Shown: positions 21,458 to 31,747, counted from the stretch's first letter. The stretch is DNA of 64,000 bases from GCF_002087085.1 NZ_MWQY01000008.1:124001-188000, one strand, 5' to 3'. A program made the numbers and translations. Notes: generated by a model not told the origin, from the letters alone.

Positions 21458-23001
<1,544 letters not shown>

Positions 23002-23005
<4 letters not shown>

Positions 23006-24021
23006 GTGATGACAACCGATTTGTCATTTATCGCGATGATAAGCAGGGCGTTCGGGTAGAGGCTCGCATTGAAGAGGAAAGCATCTGGCTGACCCAGCGT
23101 CAGATTGTCGAGCTCTTTCAGACTGCCAAATCAACGGTCAGCGAACATATCAGGAATATTTTTACTGAGGATGAGCTGCTCCCCGAGGCAACTGTTCGGA
23201 AAATCCGAACAGTTCAAAAGGAAGGAAGTCGTGAGGTTTCCCGGGAGCTGGATTACTACAATCTCGATATGATTATCTCCCTTGGGTACCGCATCAATTC
23301 TAAAATTGCTACCCATTTTCGACAGTGGGCCACCCAGAGACTCAAAGAGTACATTGTAAAAGGCTTCACCATGGATGATGAACGCCTGAAGAACCTCGGC
23401 GGCGGGAACTACTGGAAAGAGCTGCTGGACCGTATTCGCGACATCCGCTCCAGCGAGAAGGTCATGTACCGTCAGGTGCTGGAACTCTACGCCACCGCAA
23501 CCGACTATGATCCCAAAAGTGAGGAGAGCCTTCAGTTTTTCAAGATCGTACAAAACAAGCTCCACTACGCCGCCCACGGCCACACCGCCAGCGAGGTGAT
23601 TTATCTGCGGGTTGACAGCGACAAGCCCTTCGCGGGCTTAAGCAACTTTAAAGGCAGTCAGCCCACCCAGGCCGAAGCCATGATCGCCAAAAATTATCTG
23701 AGCGTTCAGGAGCTGCAGGTTTTGAATAACCTTGTATCCGCGTATTTTGATCTGGCCGAACTGAACGCCATTGAACAGCGAGAAATGCGTATGGCCGATT
23801 ATGTACGGGAGCTGGATAACATTCTGGGTTCAACCGGACGCGCGGTCCTGGAAAACTCCGGCAATATCTCCCACTCCCGGGCAGTGGACAAAGCCAGATT
23901 GGAATACAAAAAATACAAAGCCAGGACGCTGGAAAACGTGGAAAAAGAGTACCTGGAAACCATCGCCGCACTGGAAAAACAGGCCAGGAGAGAGAGCCGG
24001 AAAAAGGGCGGTGAGGGATGA
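23002..24021 (+). CDS. RhuM family DNA-binding ('virulence') protein
   Basis: [55 protein letters not shown]. Confidence 0.9.
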
Positions 24022-24830
24022 AAACAAACAAAACGATAATAGTCCTGGACGAAGAAATCCGGGTCACCAAGGATGACTATATTTTACTAACCGACATGCT
24101 ACGCTCCAAGGATGGAAACTTTTTCATCACCGATTGGCTACGAAACCGCAACACTCTTGAATATCTTGGCATATGGGAGAGGGTCCATAACCCCAATTTT
24201 AATTGGGGCGAATTCGCCATAATTAAAAGTCAGGCCGGACTTAACAGGTATAAAATTAGCGTAAAAGAATGGGTGGCCAAAACCAATGCAATTGGAATAC
24301 AGGCTAAAGCCGGACGTTACGGCGGAACCTATGCACATTCTGATATTGCCTTTGAATTTGGAATGTGGATCAGCGCAGAATTTAAAATATATCTTGTTAA
24401 GGAGTTTCAAAGGCTAAAAAACGAAGAGGCTAAGCAGCTCGGCTGGGAGGTTAGACGCCAGCTTACCAAGATAAACTATCGCATTCATAGCGAGGCGGTT
24501 AAAGAAAATCTGATTCCTCCGACGTTGACCAAACAGCAAACCAGCCTTGTCTATGCTACAGAAGCGGACCTGTTGAACATGGCTCTTTTCGGCAAGACAG
24601 CCAGGCAGTGGCGAGAGGAGAACAACGACAAAAGCGGCAATATACGTGATTACGCCAATGTCTCCCAACTCGTTTGCCTGGCCAACCTTGAAACCCTGAA
24701 CGCACACTTGATCCAGCAGAATATGGTTCAGGCGGAACGATTGAAGCTGTTAAACCAGACCGCCATTCAACAGATGCGCCTGTTGACAGAAAGTAACAAT
24801 ATTAAAGAACTGCAGGGCGGTGAGGGATGA
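24018..24830 (+). CDS. KilA-N domain protein
   Basis: WLRNRNTLEYLGIWE, GRYGGTYAHSDIAFEFGMWIS, KINYRIH. Confidence 0.9.
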   Translation: MKTNKTIIVLDEEIRVTKDDYILLTDMLRSKDGNFFITDWLRNRNTLEYLGIWERVHNPNFNWGEFAIIKSQAGLNRYKISVKEWVAKTNAIGIQAKAGRYGGTYAHSDIAFEFGMWISAEFKIYLVKEFQRLKNEEAKQLGWEVRRQLTKINYRIHSEAVKENLIPPTLTKQQTSLVYATEADLLNMALFGKTARQWREENNDKSGNIRDYANVSQLVCLANLETLNAHLIQQNMVQAERLKLLNQTAIQQMRLLTESNNIKELQGGEG

Positions 24831-24866
24831 GGAAGGGAGTCTCACGCGAAGGCGTAAAGAAGATGG

Positions 24867-24934
24867 AACCACTGAAAACACTGAAGACACGGAAAGGGAC
24901 TAACAATTCTGTGTATTCCGTGTATTCCGTGGTT
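24867..24934. repeat. 9-bp-periodic palindromic element, copy 1
   Basis: AACCACTGAAAACACTGAAGACACGGAA...TTCTGTGTATTCCGTGTATTCCGTGGTT. Confidence 0.9.
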
Positions 24935-24954
24935 AAAGCATTGGGAGTTATGGC

Positions 24955-26193
24955 ATGAGCGAATTGAGCTTTATAGAAAGGCTGCTGGATGGGGCCCGGG
25001 TTGAATGGAAGGCGTTGGGGGAAGTTTGCGACGTTTTTACAGGTGGTGAGGCTCCAGAAAACAGTATCAAAGGCTCAATACCAACTAACGACTACAAATA
25101 CCCAATTTATGGAAACGGTGCCGAAATATACGGTTACACAGACACCTATAGAATTGATAAAGATGCTGTAACTATCTCATCTATTGGTGCAAATACCGGT
25201 ACCATCTATTACAGGGAAGCATTTTTTACCCCAATTATTAGGCTCAAAGTATTAATGCCGAAGCAGGAATGGCTAATATCAAAGTACATTTTTCATTATT
25301 TGGCATCTCAAACAATTTATAGCAAGAAAAGCAGTGTTCCAAATATGAACGCTGCGGATGTAAAAAGAATCCAAATCCCCATCCCCTGCCCGGATGATCC
25401 GGAAAAATCCCTGAAGATCCAGGCGGAAATTGTCCGTATTCTGGACGCGTTCACCGAGCTTAGCACCGAGCTTAGCACCGAGCTTAGCTTGCGGAAGAAG
25501 CAGTATGGGTACTATCGGGAACGCTTGTTGAGTTTTGAAGAGGGGACCACGAAGGACACGAAAAGCACGAAAGGGGTTGAGTGGAAGACCTTGGGGGAGA
25601 TAATAAAAAAGTCATACTCTGGAGGGACCCCCACGGCGGGCAATTCAGAATATTACGATGGTGGGACAATTCCTTGGTTGAGAACACAAGAAGTCAGATT
25701 TTCTGATATTGAGAAAACAGAAGTTAAGATAACGTCTTCTGCATTGAAAGATACCGCAGTTAAATGGATTCCTACAAATTGCGTTATTATTGCAATTTCA
25801 GGTGCTACCGCAGGAAGGTCTGCGATCAATAAAATACCTTTAACGACAAATCAGCACTGTTGTTGTTTAGAAATCGATCCTAAAAAGGCATTATACCGAT
25901 ATGTTTTTCATTGGGTAAGTTTAAACTATAATAATCTGAAAGGACTTGGGCAAGGTGCTAGAGGGGATCTCAATTCGGGAATCATAAAGAATTTTCAGAT
26001 ACCTATTCCGTATGCTGATGATCCTGAGAAATCGCTTAATGAACAAGCCCGGATCGTCGCCATCCTTGACAAGTTTGATGCCCTTACCAACTCCATCTCC
26101 GAAGGACTGCCCCGGGAAATCGAATTGCGGAAGAAGCAGTACGAATATTACCGGGATATGTTGTTGAGTTTTCCCAAGCCGGAGGAGGAATAA
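24955..26193 (+). CDS. hsdS: Type I R-M specificity subunit with two TRDs
   Basis: VEWKALGEV, QAEIVRILDAFTEL, RKKQY.YYR..LLSF repeated; type IC-like conserved regions. Confidence 0.95.
   Translation: MSELSFIERLLDGARVEWKALGEVCDVFTGGEAPENSIKGSIPTNDYKYPIYGNGAEIYGYTDTYRIDKDAVTISSIGANTGTIYYREAFFTPIIRLKVLMPKQEWLISKYIFHYLASQTIYSKKSSVPNMNAADVKRIQIPIPCPDDPEKSLKIQAEIVRILDAFTELSTELSTELSLRKKQYGYYRERLLSFEEGTTKDTKSTKGVEWKTLGEIIKKSYSGGTPTAGNSEYYDGGTIPWLRTQEVRFSDIEKTEVKITSSALKDTAVKWIPTNCVIIAISGATAGRSAINKIPLTTNQHCCCLEIDPKKALYRYVFHWVSLNYNNLKGLGQGARGDLNSGIIKNFQIPIPYADDPEKSLNEQARIVAILDKFDALTNSISEGLPREIELRKKQYEYYRDMLLSFPKPEEE
25453..25488 (+). repeat. 3 x 12-bp tandem repeat ACCGAGCTTAGC (TELS)3 in the hsdS central conserved region
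   Basis: Exact triplication; same position as the TAEL repeats of EcoR124I HsdS. Confidence 0.9.
25546..25572 (+). repeat. Left half of the palindromic element, in frame inside hsdS (TTKDTKSTK)
   Basis: ACCACGAAG GACACGAAA AGCACGAAA matches the left arm at 26198. Confidence 0.8.
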
Positions 26194-26197
26194 TGGA

Positions 26198-26797
26198 ACC
26201 ACGAAAGACACAAAAATCACGAAAAAGAATCTTGAATACTTCTTTCGTGTATTTTGTGCATTTCGTGGTAAAAAAAGAGCAGTATGATCAAAGTGATTTG
26301 TTGTTGAGCTTTCCCAAACCGGAGAGGGATTAATGGAACCACAGAATACACAGAAAACACGGAAAAAGAATAATAAAATTTCCGTGTATTCCGTGGTTTC
26401 CGTGGTTAAAAAAGAGCTTGACAAATGAGCAATAAAAAAAGGACTTATTCTTGCAAGCCAATGAGCTGCTTCAAGATTTCAAGACGCTGATTGAGCAAGG
26501 TCGACATAAGGCGGTTGCGGCGGAAGCAATATGAATATTACCGGGATATGTTGTTGAGTTTTCCCAAGCCGGAGGAGGAATAATGGAACCACGAAAGACA
26601 CAAAAATCACGAAAAAGAATCTTGAATACTACTTTCGTGTATTTTGTGCATTTCGTGGTAAAAAAAGAGCAGTATGATCAAAGTGATTTGTTGTTAAGCT
26701 TTCCCAAACCGGAGGAGGATTAATGGAACCACAGAATACACAGAAAACACGGAAAAAGAATAATAAAATTTCCGTGTATTCTGTGTTTTCCGTGGTT
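26198..26797. repeat. Palindromic elements 2-5 (26198-26269, 26337-26407, 26588-26659, 26727-26797) in a 390-bp-period duplication
   Basis: Near-identical blocks offset by 390 bp; each element is preceded by an hsdS-tail copy ending in TAATGGA. Confidence 0.92.
26425..26523 (+). pseudogene. 5' remnant of a second DUF1016 allele (frameshifted, truncated)
   Basis: AAGACGCTGATTGAGCAAGGTCG..TAAGGCGGTTGCGGCGG matches about 26875-26917; A7 instead of A8 near the start; joins an hsdS tail. Confidence 0.8.
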
Positions 26798-26814
26798 AAA
26801 AAAGAGGTCAAGCA

Positions 26815-27861
26815 ATGAGTAAAAAAAAGGATGGTGTAAGCAAGACGAGTCCTGCGGATTTACTTCGCGATGTGAAGACGCTGATTGAGCAAGGTCGGTA
26901 TAAGGCGGTTGCGGCGGTCAACAGTGCGCTTACCGTTACCTATTGGCAAGTTGGCAAACGCATTAACGAAGAGGTGTTGCAGGGCGAACGGGCGGAATAC
27001 GGAAAACAGGTTGTGAAGACATTGGCCAAAGAGCTTGTCATAATCTACGGCAGAAGTTTTGAGGCGAAAAACCTTCGGCGTATGATGCAATTTGCGGAGA
27101 TTTTCCCGGATATTGAGATTGTCGTTCCGCTGGCACGACAATTAAGCTGGTCACATTTTTTAGTATTAATTCCTTTGAAATCACCTGAAGCCAGACTCTT
27201 TTATGCTCGCACTGCCTGTGAATCACACTGGAGCAAGCGGGAGTTAAGGCATCAGATTGAGCGCAAAGCCTTTGAACGCTCCGAAATAGCCGATACCAAA
27301 TTGGCTTTGGCAGAAGCAAATCATTTGAACGGCAACTTCAAGGATCCCTACTTTTTGGATTTTCTAGGATTGAAAGAAGGTTACATGGAGAATGAGCTGG
27401 AAAATGCCTTGCTCAAAGAGCTTGAGTTGTTCATCCTTGAACTGGACAAGGGCTTTGCCTTTGTGGAACGCCAGAAGCGTATGATTATTGATGGCGAAGA
27501 TTTTTATCTCGACTTGCTTTTCTATCACCGGAAACTCAAGCGTCTGGTTGCAATCGATCTAAAAATAGACCGATTCAAAGCTGGATTTAAAGGACAGATG
27601 GAGCTTTACCTGAACTGGCTTGATAAATTCGAACGTCAGGAGGGTGAAGAAGCTCCGATTGGGCTGATACTATGTACGGAGGCGGGCACCGAACAGGTGG
27701 AACTGCTCAACATGCAGAAAGACAACATTATGGTGGCAGAGTATTGGACAAGTCTTCCGCCGAAAGAACTATTGGAGGAAAAACTTCACAATGCACTGAT
27801 TGAAGTCCGCGAACGGTTGGCGGAACAAAAGTTATTAGAGGGAGGTGGCGGATATGCTTGA
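26815..27861 (+). CDS. DUF1016/YhcG family PD-(D/E)XK nuclease-domain protein
   Basis: [51 protein letters not shown]. Confidence 0.92.
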
Positions 27862-27970
27862 TTACAAACCCACCACCGAAGGGCTGCCCCGGGAGATTGA
27901 ACTGCGGCGGAAGCAGTACGAATATTACCGGGATTTGCTGTTGAGTTTTCCCAAACCGGAGGAGGATTAA
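27854..27970 (+). pseudogene. 38-aa chimeric ORF carrying the hsdS C-terminal tail
   Basis: [38 protein letters not shown]; tail nearly identical to the HsdS C-terminus. Confidence 0.75.
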
Positions 27971-27973
27971 TGG

Positions 27974-28181
27974 AACCACAGAATACACAGAAAACACGGA
28001 AAAAGAATAATAAATTTTCTGTGTATTCCGTGTTTTCCGTGGTTAAAAAAGAGCAGTATGATCAAAGTGATTTGTTATTAAGCTTTCCCAAGCCGGAGGA
28101 GGATTAATGGAATCACAGAATACACTGAAAACACTGAAAAAGAATAATAAAATTTCTGTGTATTCCGTGTTTTCCGTGGTT
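27974..28181. repeat. Palindromic elements 6-7 (27974-28044, 28111-28181)
   Basis: Same 9-bp-periodic arms and hsdS-tail linker as elements 2-5. Confidence 0.9.
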
Positions 28182-28197
28182 AAAAAAGAGGTTTTCC

Positions 28198-28578
28198 GTG
28201 AATGAGGTTCTGTTATTTGAAGAAGAAAGCTATCAGATCCGTGGTGCTATTTTTGAAGTTTACCGTGAGATGGGTTGTGGCTTTCTTGAGGCTGTCTACC
28301 AGGAGTGTCTTGAGAAGGAACTAAACAAGCAGAGAATTCCGTTTATTGCCCAACCGGAACTTGAGTTGTTCTATAAGGATGAAAAACTTCAACAAACTTA
28401 CAAGCCTGATTTAATTTGCTATGACCAAATCATTGTTGAACTTAAAGCAGTCAGAGAAGTTTGCGATGAACATCGTGCCCAGTTACATAATTACCTGAAA
28501 GCAACAGGGCTTAAACTCGGGTTGTTAGTTAACTTCGGTCACTACCCAAAAGCAACCATTGAGAGGATAGTTAAATGA
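28198..28578 (+). CDS. GxxExxY protein (PD-(D/E)XK-like nuclease fold)
   Basis: GCGFLEAVYQECL, YKPDLIC..IIVELKAV, QLHNYLKATG..LGLLVNFG. Confidence 0.92.
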   Translation: MNEVLLFEEESYQIRGAIFEVYREMGCGFLEAVYQECLEKELNKQRIPFIAQPELELFYKDEKLQQTYKPDLICYDQIIVELKAVREVCDEHRAQLHNYLKATGLKLGLLVNFGHYPKATIERIVK

Positions 28579-28588
28579 CATTTTATCC

Positions 28589-28616
28589 TTTAGTGTTTTC
28601 CGTGTATTTCGTGGTT
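28589..28616. repeat. Right half of the palindromic element after GxxExxY
   Basis: TTTAGTGTTTTCCGTGTATTTCGTGGTT. Confidence 0.75.
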
Positions 28617-28639: not shown

Positions 28640-31600
28640 ATGATTGATTATACAAAACCCATTGCAGAAACAAACAGGTTTATCGTCCTCGACAAATACA
28701 CCAAGGAATGGCAGGTTGCTGAAAGCTATCAAAGTGAAGCCGATCTGGAGCGGGAGCTCATTGAAGACCTGCAAAACCAGGGCTATGAATACCTTCCAGA
28801 CCTGAACTCGTCGGATAAAATGCTGGCTAATGTGCGTAAACAGCTTCAGGTTTTGAATGGCGTAACCTTCCAGGAGGGTGAGTGGAAACGCTTTGTTGAA
28901 CAATACCTGGACAAACCCGGCGATACTCTCATCGACAAAACCCGTAAAATACATGATGACTATATCCATGATTTTGTCTTTGATGACGGCCATATTGAAA
29001 ACATTTACCTTCTGGACAAAAAAAATATTGCCCGCAATAAGGTTCAGGTCATTAAACAGTTTGAACAGACCGGCTCCCAGGCCAATCGCTATGATGTAAC
29101 GATTCTGGTAAACGGTTTGCCCTTGGTACAAATCGAACTGAAAAAACGCGGCGTGGCTATCAGGGAAGCCTTTAATCAGGTGCACCGCTACAGTAAAGAG
29201 AGTTTCAATACTGAGAACTCTTTATTTAAATATCTGCAGCTTTTTGTCATTTCCAACGGTACCGACAGCCGCTATTTTGCCAATACAACCAAACGTGATA
29301 AAAACAGCTTTGACTTTACCATGAATTGGGCGAAAGCCGACAATACCCTGATAAAAGATCTTAAAGACTTTACCGCTACCTTTTTCCAGAAAAACACTCT
29401 GCTGAACGTGTTGCTCCATTACTCGGTATTTGATGTCAGTGATACCTTGCTGGTCATGCGTCCCTACCAGATTGCCGCCACGGAACGTATTTTGTGGAAA
29501 ATTAAAAGCTCCTGGCAAGCCAAAAACTGGAGCAAGACAGAAAGCGGCGGGTATATTTGGCACACCACCGGTTCGGGTAAGACCTTGACGAGCTTTAAGG
29601 CTGCCCGTTTGGCTACCGAACTGCATTTTATTGATAAAGTGTTTTTTGTGGTGGATCGAAAAGACCTGGACTATCAAACCATGAAGGAATACCAGCGCTT
29701 CTCTCCCGATAGCGTCAATGGTTCCGACAGCACCGCCGGTTTAAAACGCAATCTTGATAAAGATGACAATAAGATTATCGTAACAACCATTCAAAAGCTC
29801 AATAACCTGATGAAAAGTGAAGGCAGCCTGCCTGTTTACCAGAAACAGGTTGTCTTTATCTTTGATGAGGCACACCGCAGCCAGTTTGGAGAAGCCCAAA
29901 AGAACCTGAAGAAGAAATTCAAACAGTATTACCAGTTCGGTTTTACCGGTACTCCCATCTTTCCGGAAAATGCCCTGGGAGCGGAAACCACAGGCAGTGT
30001 ATTCGGACGGGAGTTGCATTCGTATGTCATAACCGATGCCATACGGGATGAGAAAGTACTGAAATTTAAAGTTGATTATAACGATGTTCGCCCAAAGTTT
30101 AAAAACATTGAAAGCGAGCAGGACGAGAAAAAGCTCACCGCCGCGGAAAACAAGCAGGCCCTGCTGCATCCCGACCGTATAACTGAGATTACCCAGTACA
30201 TCTTGAATAATTACAGGCAAAAAACTCATCGTTCCCACGCCGGAGCCAAGGGCTTTAATGCCATGTTTGCCGTAAGCAGTGTTGATGCTGCCAAAGCCTA
30301 TTATGAATCCTTTAAAAACATGCAGAAGGAACCCGACGGCAATAAAAAGCTGAATGTGGCCACCATATTCTCTTTTGCCGCCAATGAAGAACAGGACGCT
30401 GTTGGTGAGATCCTTGATGAGAGCTTTGAGGTTTCAGCAATGGAGAGCAGTGCCAAGGAATTCTTGAGCGCTGCTATAGCTGACTATAATACTGCTTTTA
30501 AAACCAACTTTGGTGTAGACAGCAGAGGCTTTCAAAACTATTACCGCGATCTCGCCCAGCGGGTAAGAAATCAGGAAGTAGATTTGCTGATTGTGGTGGG
30601 CATGTTCCTGACAGGCTTCGATGCACCGACTCTGAACACCCTGTTTGTTGATAAAAACCTGCGTTACCACGGCTTAATGCAGGCCTTCTCACGTACAAAT
30701 CGTATTTACGATGCGACAAAAACCTTTGGGAATATCATTACTTTCCGGGATCTGGAACCGGCTACAGTCGATGCTATTACCTTGTTCGGTGATAAAAACA
30801 CCAAAAACGTTGTATTGGAAAAAAGTTATAAGGAGTACATGGAAGGTTTTACCGATATCACCACCGGCGAGGCCCGCCGTGGATATCTGGATGTGGTAGC
30901 AGAATTACAAAGACGTTTCCCAAATCCTGAAGAGATAGAAAAAGAGAAGGACAAAAAAGAGTTCGTCAAACTCTTTGGCGAGTATTTAAGGGTTGAAAAC
31001 ATACTTAATAACTACGATGAGTTTGCCGGCTTGAAAGCTTTGCAAAACGTCAATCTGGATGACCCCGAGGCGGTCGAAGCATTTAAGGAAAGACATTATC
31101 TGGATGATGACGACCTCACCGAGATGAAATCCATTGATGTTCCATCAGAACGCTTGATTCAGGATTACCGTTCTACTTATAACGACACCCGCGATTGGCT
31201 GCGTCGCGAGAAAGACGCTGACCAAAGAGATTCTTCCGGTATTGATTGGGATGATGTGGTTTTTGAAGTTGACTTGCTTAAATCCCAGGAAATAAACCTG
31301 GATTACATTCTTGAACTGATTTTTGAAAACAACAAAAGGAACAAGAGCAAGGCAGAATTAATTGAAGAGGTGAGAAGACTTCTGCGTTCCAGCCTGGGCA
31401 ACCGTGCCAAAGAAAGCTTGATGGTGGATTTTATTAATCAGACTGACCTGGATGATATGGACGACAAGGCAAGTATCATTGATGCGTTCTTTACATTTGC
31501 GCAAGCAGAACAAAAGCGTGAGGCTGATGAACTCATTCGTTCTGAAAGTTTAAATGAAGAAGCCGCAAGGCGTTACATTACATCATCATTAAAGCGAGAG

Positions 31601-31747
31601 TTTGCCAGTGAAAATGGTACTGAATTGAATTCAACTCTGCCTAAAATGAGCCCTCTTAATCCGCAATACAAAGCAAAAAAACAAAGTGTTTTCCAAAAAA
31701 TTGCTGCATTTGTAGAAAAATATAAAGGCGTCGGAGGTCATCTATGA
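28640..31747 (+). CDS. hsdR: Type I R-M restriction subunit (EcoR124I-like)
   Basis: QIELK nuclease motif, [35 protein letters not shown]. Confidence 0.97.

Follow-up and report, generated by a model that had tools for sequence, protein, structure and literature searches.

Inverted arrays of a 9-nt word around a GxxExxY nuclease gene and at the gene junctions of a type I restriction-modification operon

The type I restriction-modification (R-M) operon found in a 64,000-nucleotide (nt) stretch of NZ_MWQY01000008.1 (assembly GCF_002087085.1, positions 124001-188000; hereafter the window, in whose numbering positions are given unless a contig is named) is punctuated by seven imperfect palindromes of 68-74 nt, situated at its gene junctions, and each palindrome arm consists of three 9-nt words. 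One gene of the same operon encodes a protein of the GxxExxY family and is bracketed by these words in inverted orientation. We consider it probable (roughly 0.6) that the hairpins are gene-less derivatives of a compact, selfish GxxExxY cassette found across many bacterial phyla. The full cassette would be one GxxExxY gene between two inverted arrays, typically of three 9-nt words each, with CACNNAA words 5' of the gene and their complement 3' of it, and a hairpin would be this cassette minus the gene body: the start codon (ATG) of the cassette with the left arm, then a short loop, then the right arm. The hairpins and two half-arrays are located as follows.

24867-24934: hairpin H0, of CACTGAA/CACGGAA words, between the KilA-N gene and hsdS; common to the sister species G004
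26197-26270: hairpin H1, CACGAAA subtype, directly 3' of the hsdS stop codon with a TAATG overlap
26337-26407: hairpin H2, CACAGAA/CACGGAA subtype
26587-26660: hairpin H1', a duplicate of H1, CACGAAA subtype
26727-26797: hairpin H2', a duplicate of H2
27974-28044: hairpin H3
28111-28181: hairpin H4, directly 5' of the GxxExxY gene
25546-25572, + strand: left half-array of three words, in frame inside hsdS and read as TTKDTKSTK
28589-28616: right half-array of mixed words, which on the other strand read CACTAAA, CACGGAA and CACGAAA; the ribosome-binding site of hsdR comes next

An earlier note, made from the sequence of this DNA, had described seven palindromes of about 70 bp plus two half copies between 24867 and 28616, and this observation is confirmed by pattern counts against shuffles, by confinement within the genome and by folding. 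A 24-nt arm pattern (up to three mismatches) matched 13 times in the window, where 0.00 matches were expected from 100 shuffles, and all 13 of its matches in the 4.2 Mb genome (G000) lie at this locus. Strict three-word arms are equally restricted, with 15 of 15 in a single 3.8-kb stretch (C75:148870-152613), and when folded as single-stranded DNA each of the seven hairpins surpassed all 200 of its shuffles (z -3.3 to -8.3). The two word subtypes and the periodic mismatches reported in the same note were also recovered: CACGAAA words make up the hairpins at 26197 and 26587, CAC[A/G/T]GAA words the remaining ones, and mismatches recur at the word boundaries, i.e., arm positions 10 and 19. The left arm of H4 and the right half-array at 28589-28616 bracket the GxxExxY gene with a score of 20.5, above the 99th percentile of controls (15.5).

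The GxxExxY protein scored 146.6 bits (cut-off 35) and 147.4 bits (cut-off 22) with the family models TIGR04256 and PF13366. Residues D71, E81, K83, Q95 and Y99 are invariant in 11 sequences, leaving the catalytic motif D71...E81-x-K83 intact, and D...ExK...QxxxY is the RecB-family signature. An AlphaFold model with a mean predicted local distance difference test (pLDDT) score of 94.8 gave as its best fold match the Cas4 protein SSO0001 (E 1e-4, template-modelling (TM) score 0.61); Cas4 Pcal_0546 was also among the top matches, and lambda exonuclease, RecE, the nuclease domains of AddAB/AdnAB, and Hjc were matched as well, while no solved structure in PDB matched by sequence. GxxExxY is read as a PD-(D/E)XK nuclease with a Cas4-like fold, and the earlier note likewise described the family as PD-(D/E)XK-like. 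It shares with Cas4, RecB and lambda exonuclease a PD-(D/E)XK core with D, ExK and then Q...Y, but is about half their size and has no helicase or CRISPR partner here, and the four-cysteine iron-sulfur cluster module is apparently absent (sequence read by eye). The only classification paper found to cover PF13366 gives the function of the family as unknown and remarks on multiple transfers.

The link between gene and words was examined in a metagenome scan, in which at least 545 relatives were confirmed among at least 602 stretches; the best 80 (67-86% identical) were used. At the 73 loci with both flanks available, left-oriented words occurred within 260 nt upstream of the gene in 59 and right-oriented words downstream in 50, with both present in 40 and neither in four. 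The same search gave 5/215 (left) and 0/215 (right) for distal windows of these loci, and 0/2999 for random windows of G000, i.e., a background of at most 2.3%; the association of the elements with GxxExxY genes, put forward in the earlier note, is specific and tied to one clade of the protein. Exact bracketing, with the left arm 5' and the right arm 3' of the gene, is seen at loci L086, L103, L112 and L099, and inverted words also bracket GxxExxY at L293, L295 and L296. At L048, in a Desulfobacula metagenome-assembled genome (MAG), the layout is that of the window: hsdS tail, hairpin, GxxExxY, right half, hsdR.

Words and proteins also go together in sequence. Beside these words, seven other genomes encode proteins with 53-85% identity to the GxxExxY protein of the window, and the eight paralogs of G000, which lie beside other words, are 31-44% identical to it. 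A quick maximum-likelihood tree built from 75 distinct proteins placed every one of the 33 flanked by CACGAAA in one clade (Shimodaira-Hasegawa-like approximate likelihood ratio test (SH-aLRT) support 96), and the word-subtype label required two changes on the tree, against about 24 in shuffles (0/500 shuffles as low). More distant subfamilies have the same architecture with words of their own: CGCGAAA at 71% identity to the protein of the window (on a viral contig), CATGAAA at 57%, CACCGAA at 43%, CACGGATT at 41% and ACAGGATTT at 35%. Ten GxxExxY matches were found in the genome of the window, several of the others being flanked by different 9-nt-periodic inverted repeats, and across genomes the copies are patchy (0-15 per genome), with many gene fragments. 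Among G000 and 41 relatives, the cognate protein (E at most 1e-25) is found only in G000 and G002, and strict arms in G000, G002, G004, G021 and G026; G000 has 15 strict arms, and 36 of the 41 relatives have none. At some loci the arms are amplified on one side: in L268 (G045) the gene is preceded by four tandem left-arm units, in L187 three left arms are nested and accompanied by three right arms, and L101 carries tandem copies of a hairpin and the 5' end of the gene, with a right arm of the other subtype.

Gene-less copies can be far more numerous than genes. Strict three-word arms, forward plus reverse, numbered 174 in G045, 106 in G050, 100 in G041, 50 in G048 and 40 in G046, where reversed-pattern controls gave 1, 19, 5, 2 and 13, respectively. 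A family-model search found two to three GxxExxY matches each in G050, G048 and G046, and each of the three has a GxxExxY gene bracketed by words of the CACNNAA type. The words of the G050 gene (CACCGAA) are also its commonest solo word; the same is true of the G046 gene (CACGAAATA), the right arm of which is identical to the commonest solo arm; and the G048 gene has CACGGAA words. Among the gene-less copies of the word-pattern scan described below, the flanking genes are co-directional in 22 cases, convergent in 11 and divergent in five, and a further 21 have a neighbor more than 300 nt away.

Three Phenylobacterium genomes provide evidence of insertion. In G047, two co-directional genes overlap by GTGA and the element is absent; at the same junction, G046 and G044 have a hairpin element of about 165 nt, arranged as TGA-GGGG, arms and loop, and then ATGA, so that TGA is present on both sides and both frames are intact. 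At a second site, with inexact boundaries, G047 again lacks an element that G046 and G044 carry, so that polymorphism for presence at orthologous sites is seen at two sites as well as in the module alleles of the operon (see later). The termini of 60 elements are conserved as AAC|CAC...GTG|GTT, with an A-rich right flank. At the first of the two sites, the codon-precise one, L319 (G044) carries CACGGAA/CACAGAA words and L305 (G046) CACGAAA words, with unalignable loops between homologous outer flanks, which suggests that an older copy was replaced or converted in place. Other candidate empty sites were set aside: in a Wenzhouxiangella pair both orthologous sites are occupied, in Pedosphaera the contig ends before the hairpin, L309 is ambiguous, and L306 is a 1.1-kb indel (an unrelated ORF plus hairpin) without clean boundaries. 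The segment at L306 (1190-2304 in G046) contains an open reading frame (ORF) of 224 amino acids (aa) belonging to no recognised family, followed by the hairpin, and G044 (C13:189086-189129) has 42 nt instead.

Several observations weigh against the hairpins being offshoots of a selfish cassette. A 23-nt word-pattern scan of one-genome-per-species contigs from many phyla gave more than 121 loci, and among the 80 loci examined GxxExxY lay within 2 kb in only eight (seven places, as two loci overlap). Across all GxxExxY subfamilies of G000 and its relatives, bracketing repeats exceeded the 99th percentile of 399 control genes in only 6 of 26 cases, and the 95th in 7 of 26; bracketing is enriched, and far from universal. 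In two of five genomes with solo hairpins (G042 and G043, MAGs that may be incomplete), the only paralogs have at most 39% identity, and those examined have other words. Co-divergence of gene and arms as a unit does not imply mutual recognition, since physical linkage alone would produce it. The precise empty site is a single case, no target duplication was detected in 32 of the 60 elements (the rest have direct repeats of 3-5 nt in their A-rich flanks), and in the genome of the window the family is confined to one island. Nucleases of the Cas4/RecB type are known for end processing and not for site-specific cutting. Locally, the shuffling would need nothing more than ordinary recombination among the repeated hairpins and hsdS tails, and the R-M or bacteriophage exclusion (BREX) neighborhood of 36-39 of 80 relatives could mean a defence function rather than selfishness.

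The island in question has a G+C fraction of 0.39-0.51 over 21-32 kb, compared with 0.54-0.64 on either side. Its R-M genes are all co-oriented on the + strand, with hsdM, hsdS and hsdR all present (TIGR00497, PF01420 and TIGR00348, respectively).

21458..23005, + strand: hsdM methylase subunit (TIGR00497, 660 bits), the first gene of the low-GC island
23002-24021, + strand: accessory gene of the RhuM family (PF13310, 346 bits)
24018-24830, + strand: accessory gene with a KilA-N domain (PF04383, 79 bits)
24955..26193, + strand: hsdS specificity subunit (PF01420, two stretches)
26815..27861, + strand: yhcG, an accessory gene with a YhcG/DUF1016 PD-(D/E)XK nuclease domain (PF17761 and PF06250)
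28198..28578, + strand: the GxxExxY gene, 126 aa (TIGR04256, 146.6 bits; PF13366)
28640..31747, + strand: hsdR restriction subunit (TIGR00348, 699 bits), the end of the island

Such surroundings raise the alternative that GxxExxY is a functioning accessory protein in R-M and BREX systems, with the arrays as its own control or substrate sites (for example, operators for autoregulation) and the gene-less copies as decayed remnants. ORFs were scanned beside 79 of the best 80 relatives, some of whose loci are near-copies of each other. A core R-M or BREX enzyme domain (hsdM/S/R, EcoEI_R_C, DUF4391 with an N6_N4 methylase, or PglZ/BrxL) immediately adjoins the gene in 36 of the 80, mostly on the same strand, and the count rises to 39 when YhcG, KilA-N and SLFN-type genes are included. 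The Cas4-like fold would suit such a role, as would the order of cassette and then hsdR, found in the window, in the Desulfobacula MAG and in a Leptospiraceae MAG. Against this, the surroundings of about half of the close relatives, and of almost every gene-less copy, are unrelated housekeeping genes, and the gene-less copies of the pattern scan have no bias towards R-M or BREX neighbors. At the other word-pattern loci, short hairpins or single arms are found between genes for M50 protease, SpoU, DnaE, MutL, MutS, AspRS and transketolase, so the earlier suggestion that the elements occur only around accessory genes holds for this genome but not elsewhere. The 40-174 arms against two or three gene matches, the empty site, the gene fragments and the patchy distribution of copies fit a selfish element better, and an accessory role as the whole explanation appears unlikely, while deserving some weight. 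Carriage by phages or plasmids was rejected on record searches: there was no match in 50,697 phage records, and the eight matching plasmid records of 72,556 were all below 60% identity, seven of them on replicons larger than 400 kb; one locus is on a viral contig.

All seven hairpins of the window lie within small ORFs of 31-46 codons (24863-24958, 26193-26333, 26333-26428, 26583-26723, 26723-26818, 27970-28107 and 28107-28205). In six of these the ATG overlaps the preceding stop codon (TAATG), with a GGAGGA site 5' of it, and the ORF of H0 (24863-24958, 31 codons) starts 33 nt past the stop codon of the KilA-N gene, its TGA overlapping the ATG of hsdS. At the 3' side, an overlap of the TAATG or ATGA type joins four of the seven to the start of whatever ORF or gene follows (the H2' ORF, 26723-26818, for example, meets yhcG at an ATGA). 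Of the others, one stops on the start of the yhcG fragment described below and another 8 nt within GxxExxY. Each hairpin has a ribosome-binding site within about 10 nt on its 3' side. The chain of hairpin ORFs from 24863 to 28205 looks like a putative translational relay that begins at KilA-N and leads to GxxExxY.

In the closest relatives the nuclease has the N-terminus MEP(R/Q)NT, encoded by ATGGAACCAC, and an identical start is present in every hairpin of the window. As the hairpins share this start with the nuclease genes, their ORFs are best read as the start codon and left arm of a cassette joined to its right arm, the gene body apparently having been lost. The 9-nt period corresponds to three codons per word, and the left arm lies within the open frame of the gene in 40 of 62 cassettes, with an in-frame ATG 5' of the arm in 22 of the 62. 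In the CACGAAA clade (L205, L209, L224, L238, L250 and other loci) the nuclease is predicted to start MNHE(K/R)HE(K/R)HEK, the left arm serving as codons. A conserved, independent mini-protein was considered and is unlikely, since the frame differs between genomes (MEPQNT in the window, and MNHRIH at L048, the latter read by hand) and the same start is the N-terminus of the nuclease in relatives.

Hairpins at cistron junctions could also be RNA elements that serve the host, i.e., intercistronic stem-loops for messenger RNA stability, processing or translational coupling, with GxxExxY as just one of the genes so punctuated. The location of every window hairpin at a junction, the nearby ribosome-binding sites and the TAATG/ATGA overlaps of the small ORFs are all compatible with this, as are the strong predicted RNA stems (-21 to -39 kcal/mol) and the precise insertion in G046, which recreates a stop and a start codon. 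The evidence of the arms themselves is less favorable. Across 41 distinct gene-bearing cassettes, arm pairs comprised 1096 Watson-Crick pairs, 35 G.T on the sense strand, 47 A.C (equivalent to G.T on the other strand) and 84 other mismatches, so there is no strand bias of mismatches and no G.U enrichment on the sense strand. Neither was any covariation of pairs seen at the variable arm positions of 54 elements, and Rfam searches at E up to 1 returned only sub-threshold models of microRNA precursors (best 32.2 bits, gathering threshold 51.3), which reflects hairpin shape only. No RNA run among those listed contains this stretch. The words, moreover, occur at junctions of every orientation (convergent, divergent and co-directional), number 40-174 arms in certain genomes, and follow one protein clade across phyla, which makes a host-serving RNA role quite unlikely. 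This explanation and the defence-accessory one are possible minority views.

The difference between the two subtypes had been described as compensatory between the arms. That interpretation does not stand, because the subtype letter is common to all six words of an element, regardless of pairing. In the 54 elements outside the window with strict arms, identity of the subtype-defining letter was 0.96 for paired words, 0.97 for unpaired words and 0.96 for words of the same arm, and the corresponding values were lower for word position 4 (0.72 paired, 0.65 unpaired), the first spacer letter (0.44 and 0.53) and the second spacer letter (0.75 and 0.79). The arms are complementary because all six words of an element are the same word, and these data would suit arrays of a protein-recognized word better than a structure maintained through pairing. 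The stem may nonetheless have a role, given that it is predicted to form despite two to six mismatches. Two indications of structure in the window were examined and rejected. The minus strand folds better in six of seven hairpins, but these copies are related, and the 41 independent cassettes are unbiased; and a swapped spacer order, which might have suggested a designed bubble (paired 0/12, unpaired 8/12 in the window), was divided elsewhere into 12 swapped, 12 direct, 20 ties and 10 uninformative.

The local array contains, besides the hairpins, several partial gene copies. A 390-bp tandem duplication comprises 26125-26514 and 26515-26904 (95% identity over 300 nt), each hairpin of the window has a copy of the hsdS 3' end on its 5' side, and tail plus hairpin modules of 137-140 nt recur.

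26281..26333, + strand: tail', a diverged repeat of the final ~55 nt of hsdS, through which the H1 mini-ORF reads
26425..26586, + strand: yhcG 5' fragment and, from 26515, another hsdS tail copy, the two meeting at the duplication junction (repeat families D1, at 95%, D4 and D6)
26671-26723 and 28053-28107: further copies of tail'
27862..27970, + strand: stand-alone copy of ~110 nt from the 3' end of hsdS (repeat families D1 and D4)

Alleles of this region were compared using contigs of four public runs, aligned at 90% likeness or more. The duplication junction at 26515 is spanned by contigs of two studies (26434-26564 in X1 and 26295-26564 in X4), one of which may be the source sample, so that an assembly artefact, the possibility raised in the earlier note, is unlikely. 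Joints from 26270 to 26798 (X1 and X7) and from 26660 to 26798 (X4) lack at least one tail-hairpin module (527 nt or 137 nt missing) and are positioned at the ends of right arms. Contigs of X4 and X7 have H1, then about 400-408 unrelated letters, and then a right half-arm before hsdR. Word number also varies: the left half-array inside hsdS is 18 nt shorter in X1 and 9 nt shorter in X7, and H2 is 9 nt longer in X4. Junction coverage and the simpler alleles together indicate that the array is real and differs between strains, and the proposal that alleles of the defence operon are rearranged at the elements is upheld by these module differences, with their breakpoints at hairpin ends.

The local variation is, as far as the sequences tell, what recombination and slippage between repeats would yield, which invites the explanation that host processes alone (recombination, slippage, and gene conversion between palindromes) spread the repeats, with GxxExxY a passive cargo between the arms. 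All local breakpoints fall within repeats (right-arm ends, hsdS tails and a 9-letter overlap at a joint), word number shifts by 9 or 18 nt as in slippage, and there is no evident target-site duplication. Host processes would leave unexplained why one clade has one word, why all six words change jointly with the clade, and how an element was inserted into a 4-nt gene overlap without a prior repeat; nor do they account for the recurrence of the same architecture, with unrelated words, around distant subfamilies. We regard them as a very unlikely explanation by themselves. If the hairpins are instead remnants of a mobile cassette, it would have entered the genome together with a horizontally acquired type I R-M operon, and tandem duplication and unequal recombination would have multiplied the hairpins locally, along with 55-110 nt copies of the hsdS 3' end.

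Within hsdS, the linker words TTKDTKSTK sit between the central conserved region and the second target-recognition domain. In enzymes of the EcoR124 type, the number of repeats in the central region alters the recognition spacer. The first target-recognition region (~25010-25361) is replaced by unrelated sequence in contigs of all four public runs, with the flanks retained, and this points to probable swapping of hsdS specificity domains among strains. Related contigs stop at or beside such repeats (the end of G004:C29 and the starts of G004:C43, G035:C67 and G048:C227), from which it appears that short-read assemblies tend to break on them.

The possibility of attC-like sites, i.e., an integron-type cassette array in the form of an attC cluster without a nearby integrase, was also raised by the earlier note. 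Like integron cassettes, the island has co-oriented, promoterless-looking genes, each followed by an imperfect palindrome of similar length (~70 bp), and the outer triplets AAC...GTT give a superficial likeness. The genome does encode an integron-type integrase (C34:3117-4061, 393.7 bits, cut-off 265), the only one above the cut-off. The attC core consensus is RYYYAAC...GTTRRRY, and none of the seven hairpins has it on either strand. A crude scan of the 219-kb contig that carries the integrase (C34) found no attC-like pairs, and the hairpin family is absent there too. No recombinase domain was found among 18 ORFs scanned between 16.6 and 37.6 kb, and no tRNA gene within the window. The array has no adjacent integrase, and in full elements, unlike integron attC sites, the gene lies between the arms. 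Across the 41 independent cassettes no strand asymmetry was seen; in the window, mismatches do recur at word boundaries. The attC reading fails on the features that could be tested (integrase, recombinase domains and core sites), and is at best a remote prospect.

How a cassette of this kind might move and persist can be sketched from the above. The words would be recognition sites of the cognate nuclease, a minimal Cas4/RecB-like core; the nuclease would start the copying of the element into new junctions, as well as conversion between existing copies; and the hairpin shape would be largely a by-product of inverted arrays of one word. Persistence at cistron junctions would be favored because each hairpin lies in a small ORF that retains stop-start overlaps. 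A broader proposal, which we hold tentatively and at somewhat less than even odds, is that GxxExxY cassettes are a distinct and very widespread class of mobile DNA, in which a minimal Cas4/RecB-like nuclease recognizes its own 9-nt word, arrayed at each terminus, copies the whole element or the gene-less miniature into stop-start junctions and overwrites older copies by conversion, the insert being an open relay frame that keeps flanking translation coupled. If so, R-M and BREX operons would be favored sites for landing or hitch-hiking, and the hairpins would be breakpoints at which defence operons are reshuffled.

Several known systems offer partial parallels. The ends of Tn7 and Mu have several recognition words in the same orientation per end, with the ends inverted, and words that are conserved while spacers drift; the present elements resemble them in this, but have no DDE or other known transposase and no target duplication of fixed length, and are smaller than 0.6 kb. 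Repetitive extragenic palindromic (REP) sequences and REPINs with a REP-associated tyrosine transposase (RAYT) gene, as presented in PMC3116915 and PMC3337134, come closer. The REP/RAYT-like logic suggested at the outset stands in that one or a few genes are flanked by the inverted repeat, and gene-less copies outnumber genes and match the resident gene in their repeat. Short intergenic palindromes reach tens to hundreds of copies in certain other genomes (40-174 strict arms), and in the genome of the window all 15 strict arms are confined to one locus. It does not extend to the gene, which is not a RAYT: in place of a HUH/Y1 (IS200/IS605-like) transposase there is a 126-aa PD-(D/E)XK nuclease with a Cas4-like model. 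The arm is a tandem array of one 9-nt word and not a self-folding REP, and the cassette moves between phyla and favors R-M operons. The intervening sequence (IVS) in the 23S rRNA of Coxiella burnetii, described with its S23p ORF in PMC4990558, is likewise a small selfish insert with a tiny ORF enclosed by an end-to-end stem, and tolerated in a transcription unit. The present elements differ from it in residing in protein-coding operons and intergenic DNA, and in carrying GxxExxY rather than a four-helix-bundle protein; no gene for the latter cargo (TIGR02436) was found in the genome of the window.

A literature search, with paywalled papers and supplements outside its range, found no description of the association between GxxExxY and word arrays, and the element class is apparently undescribed. 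GxxExxY (PF13366) is a very large family, one subfamily alone having at least 545 metagenomic relatives, and a defined DNA partner, in the form of inverted arrays of a cognate 9-nt word, makes this orphan family a testable system with a predicted substrate. The association would account for a class of intergenic hairpins in many phyla that break short-read assemblies, and would be a second example, after REPIN-RAYT, of a gene-plus-miniature-palindrome lifestyle, built on an unrelated enzyme. For restriction systems, it adds a recombination-prone punctuation that differs between strains of one operon, and the predicted relay ORFs illustrate how an insert may sit in an operon without uncoupling translation.

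Other word-periodic hairpin families are present elsewhere in G000, at C4:30064-30141, C12:137435-137539, C23:221109-221200 and C65:9493-9581. Their words include CACGACA/CACTACA, ACAGGATNN and TCTGCGCNN, and some adjoin other GxxExxY paralogs; further word-periodic repeats flank the GxxExxY genes at C23:235945 and C23:237515.

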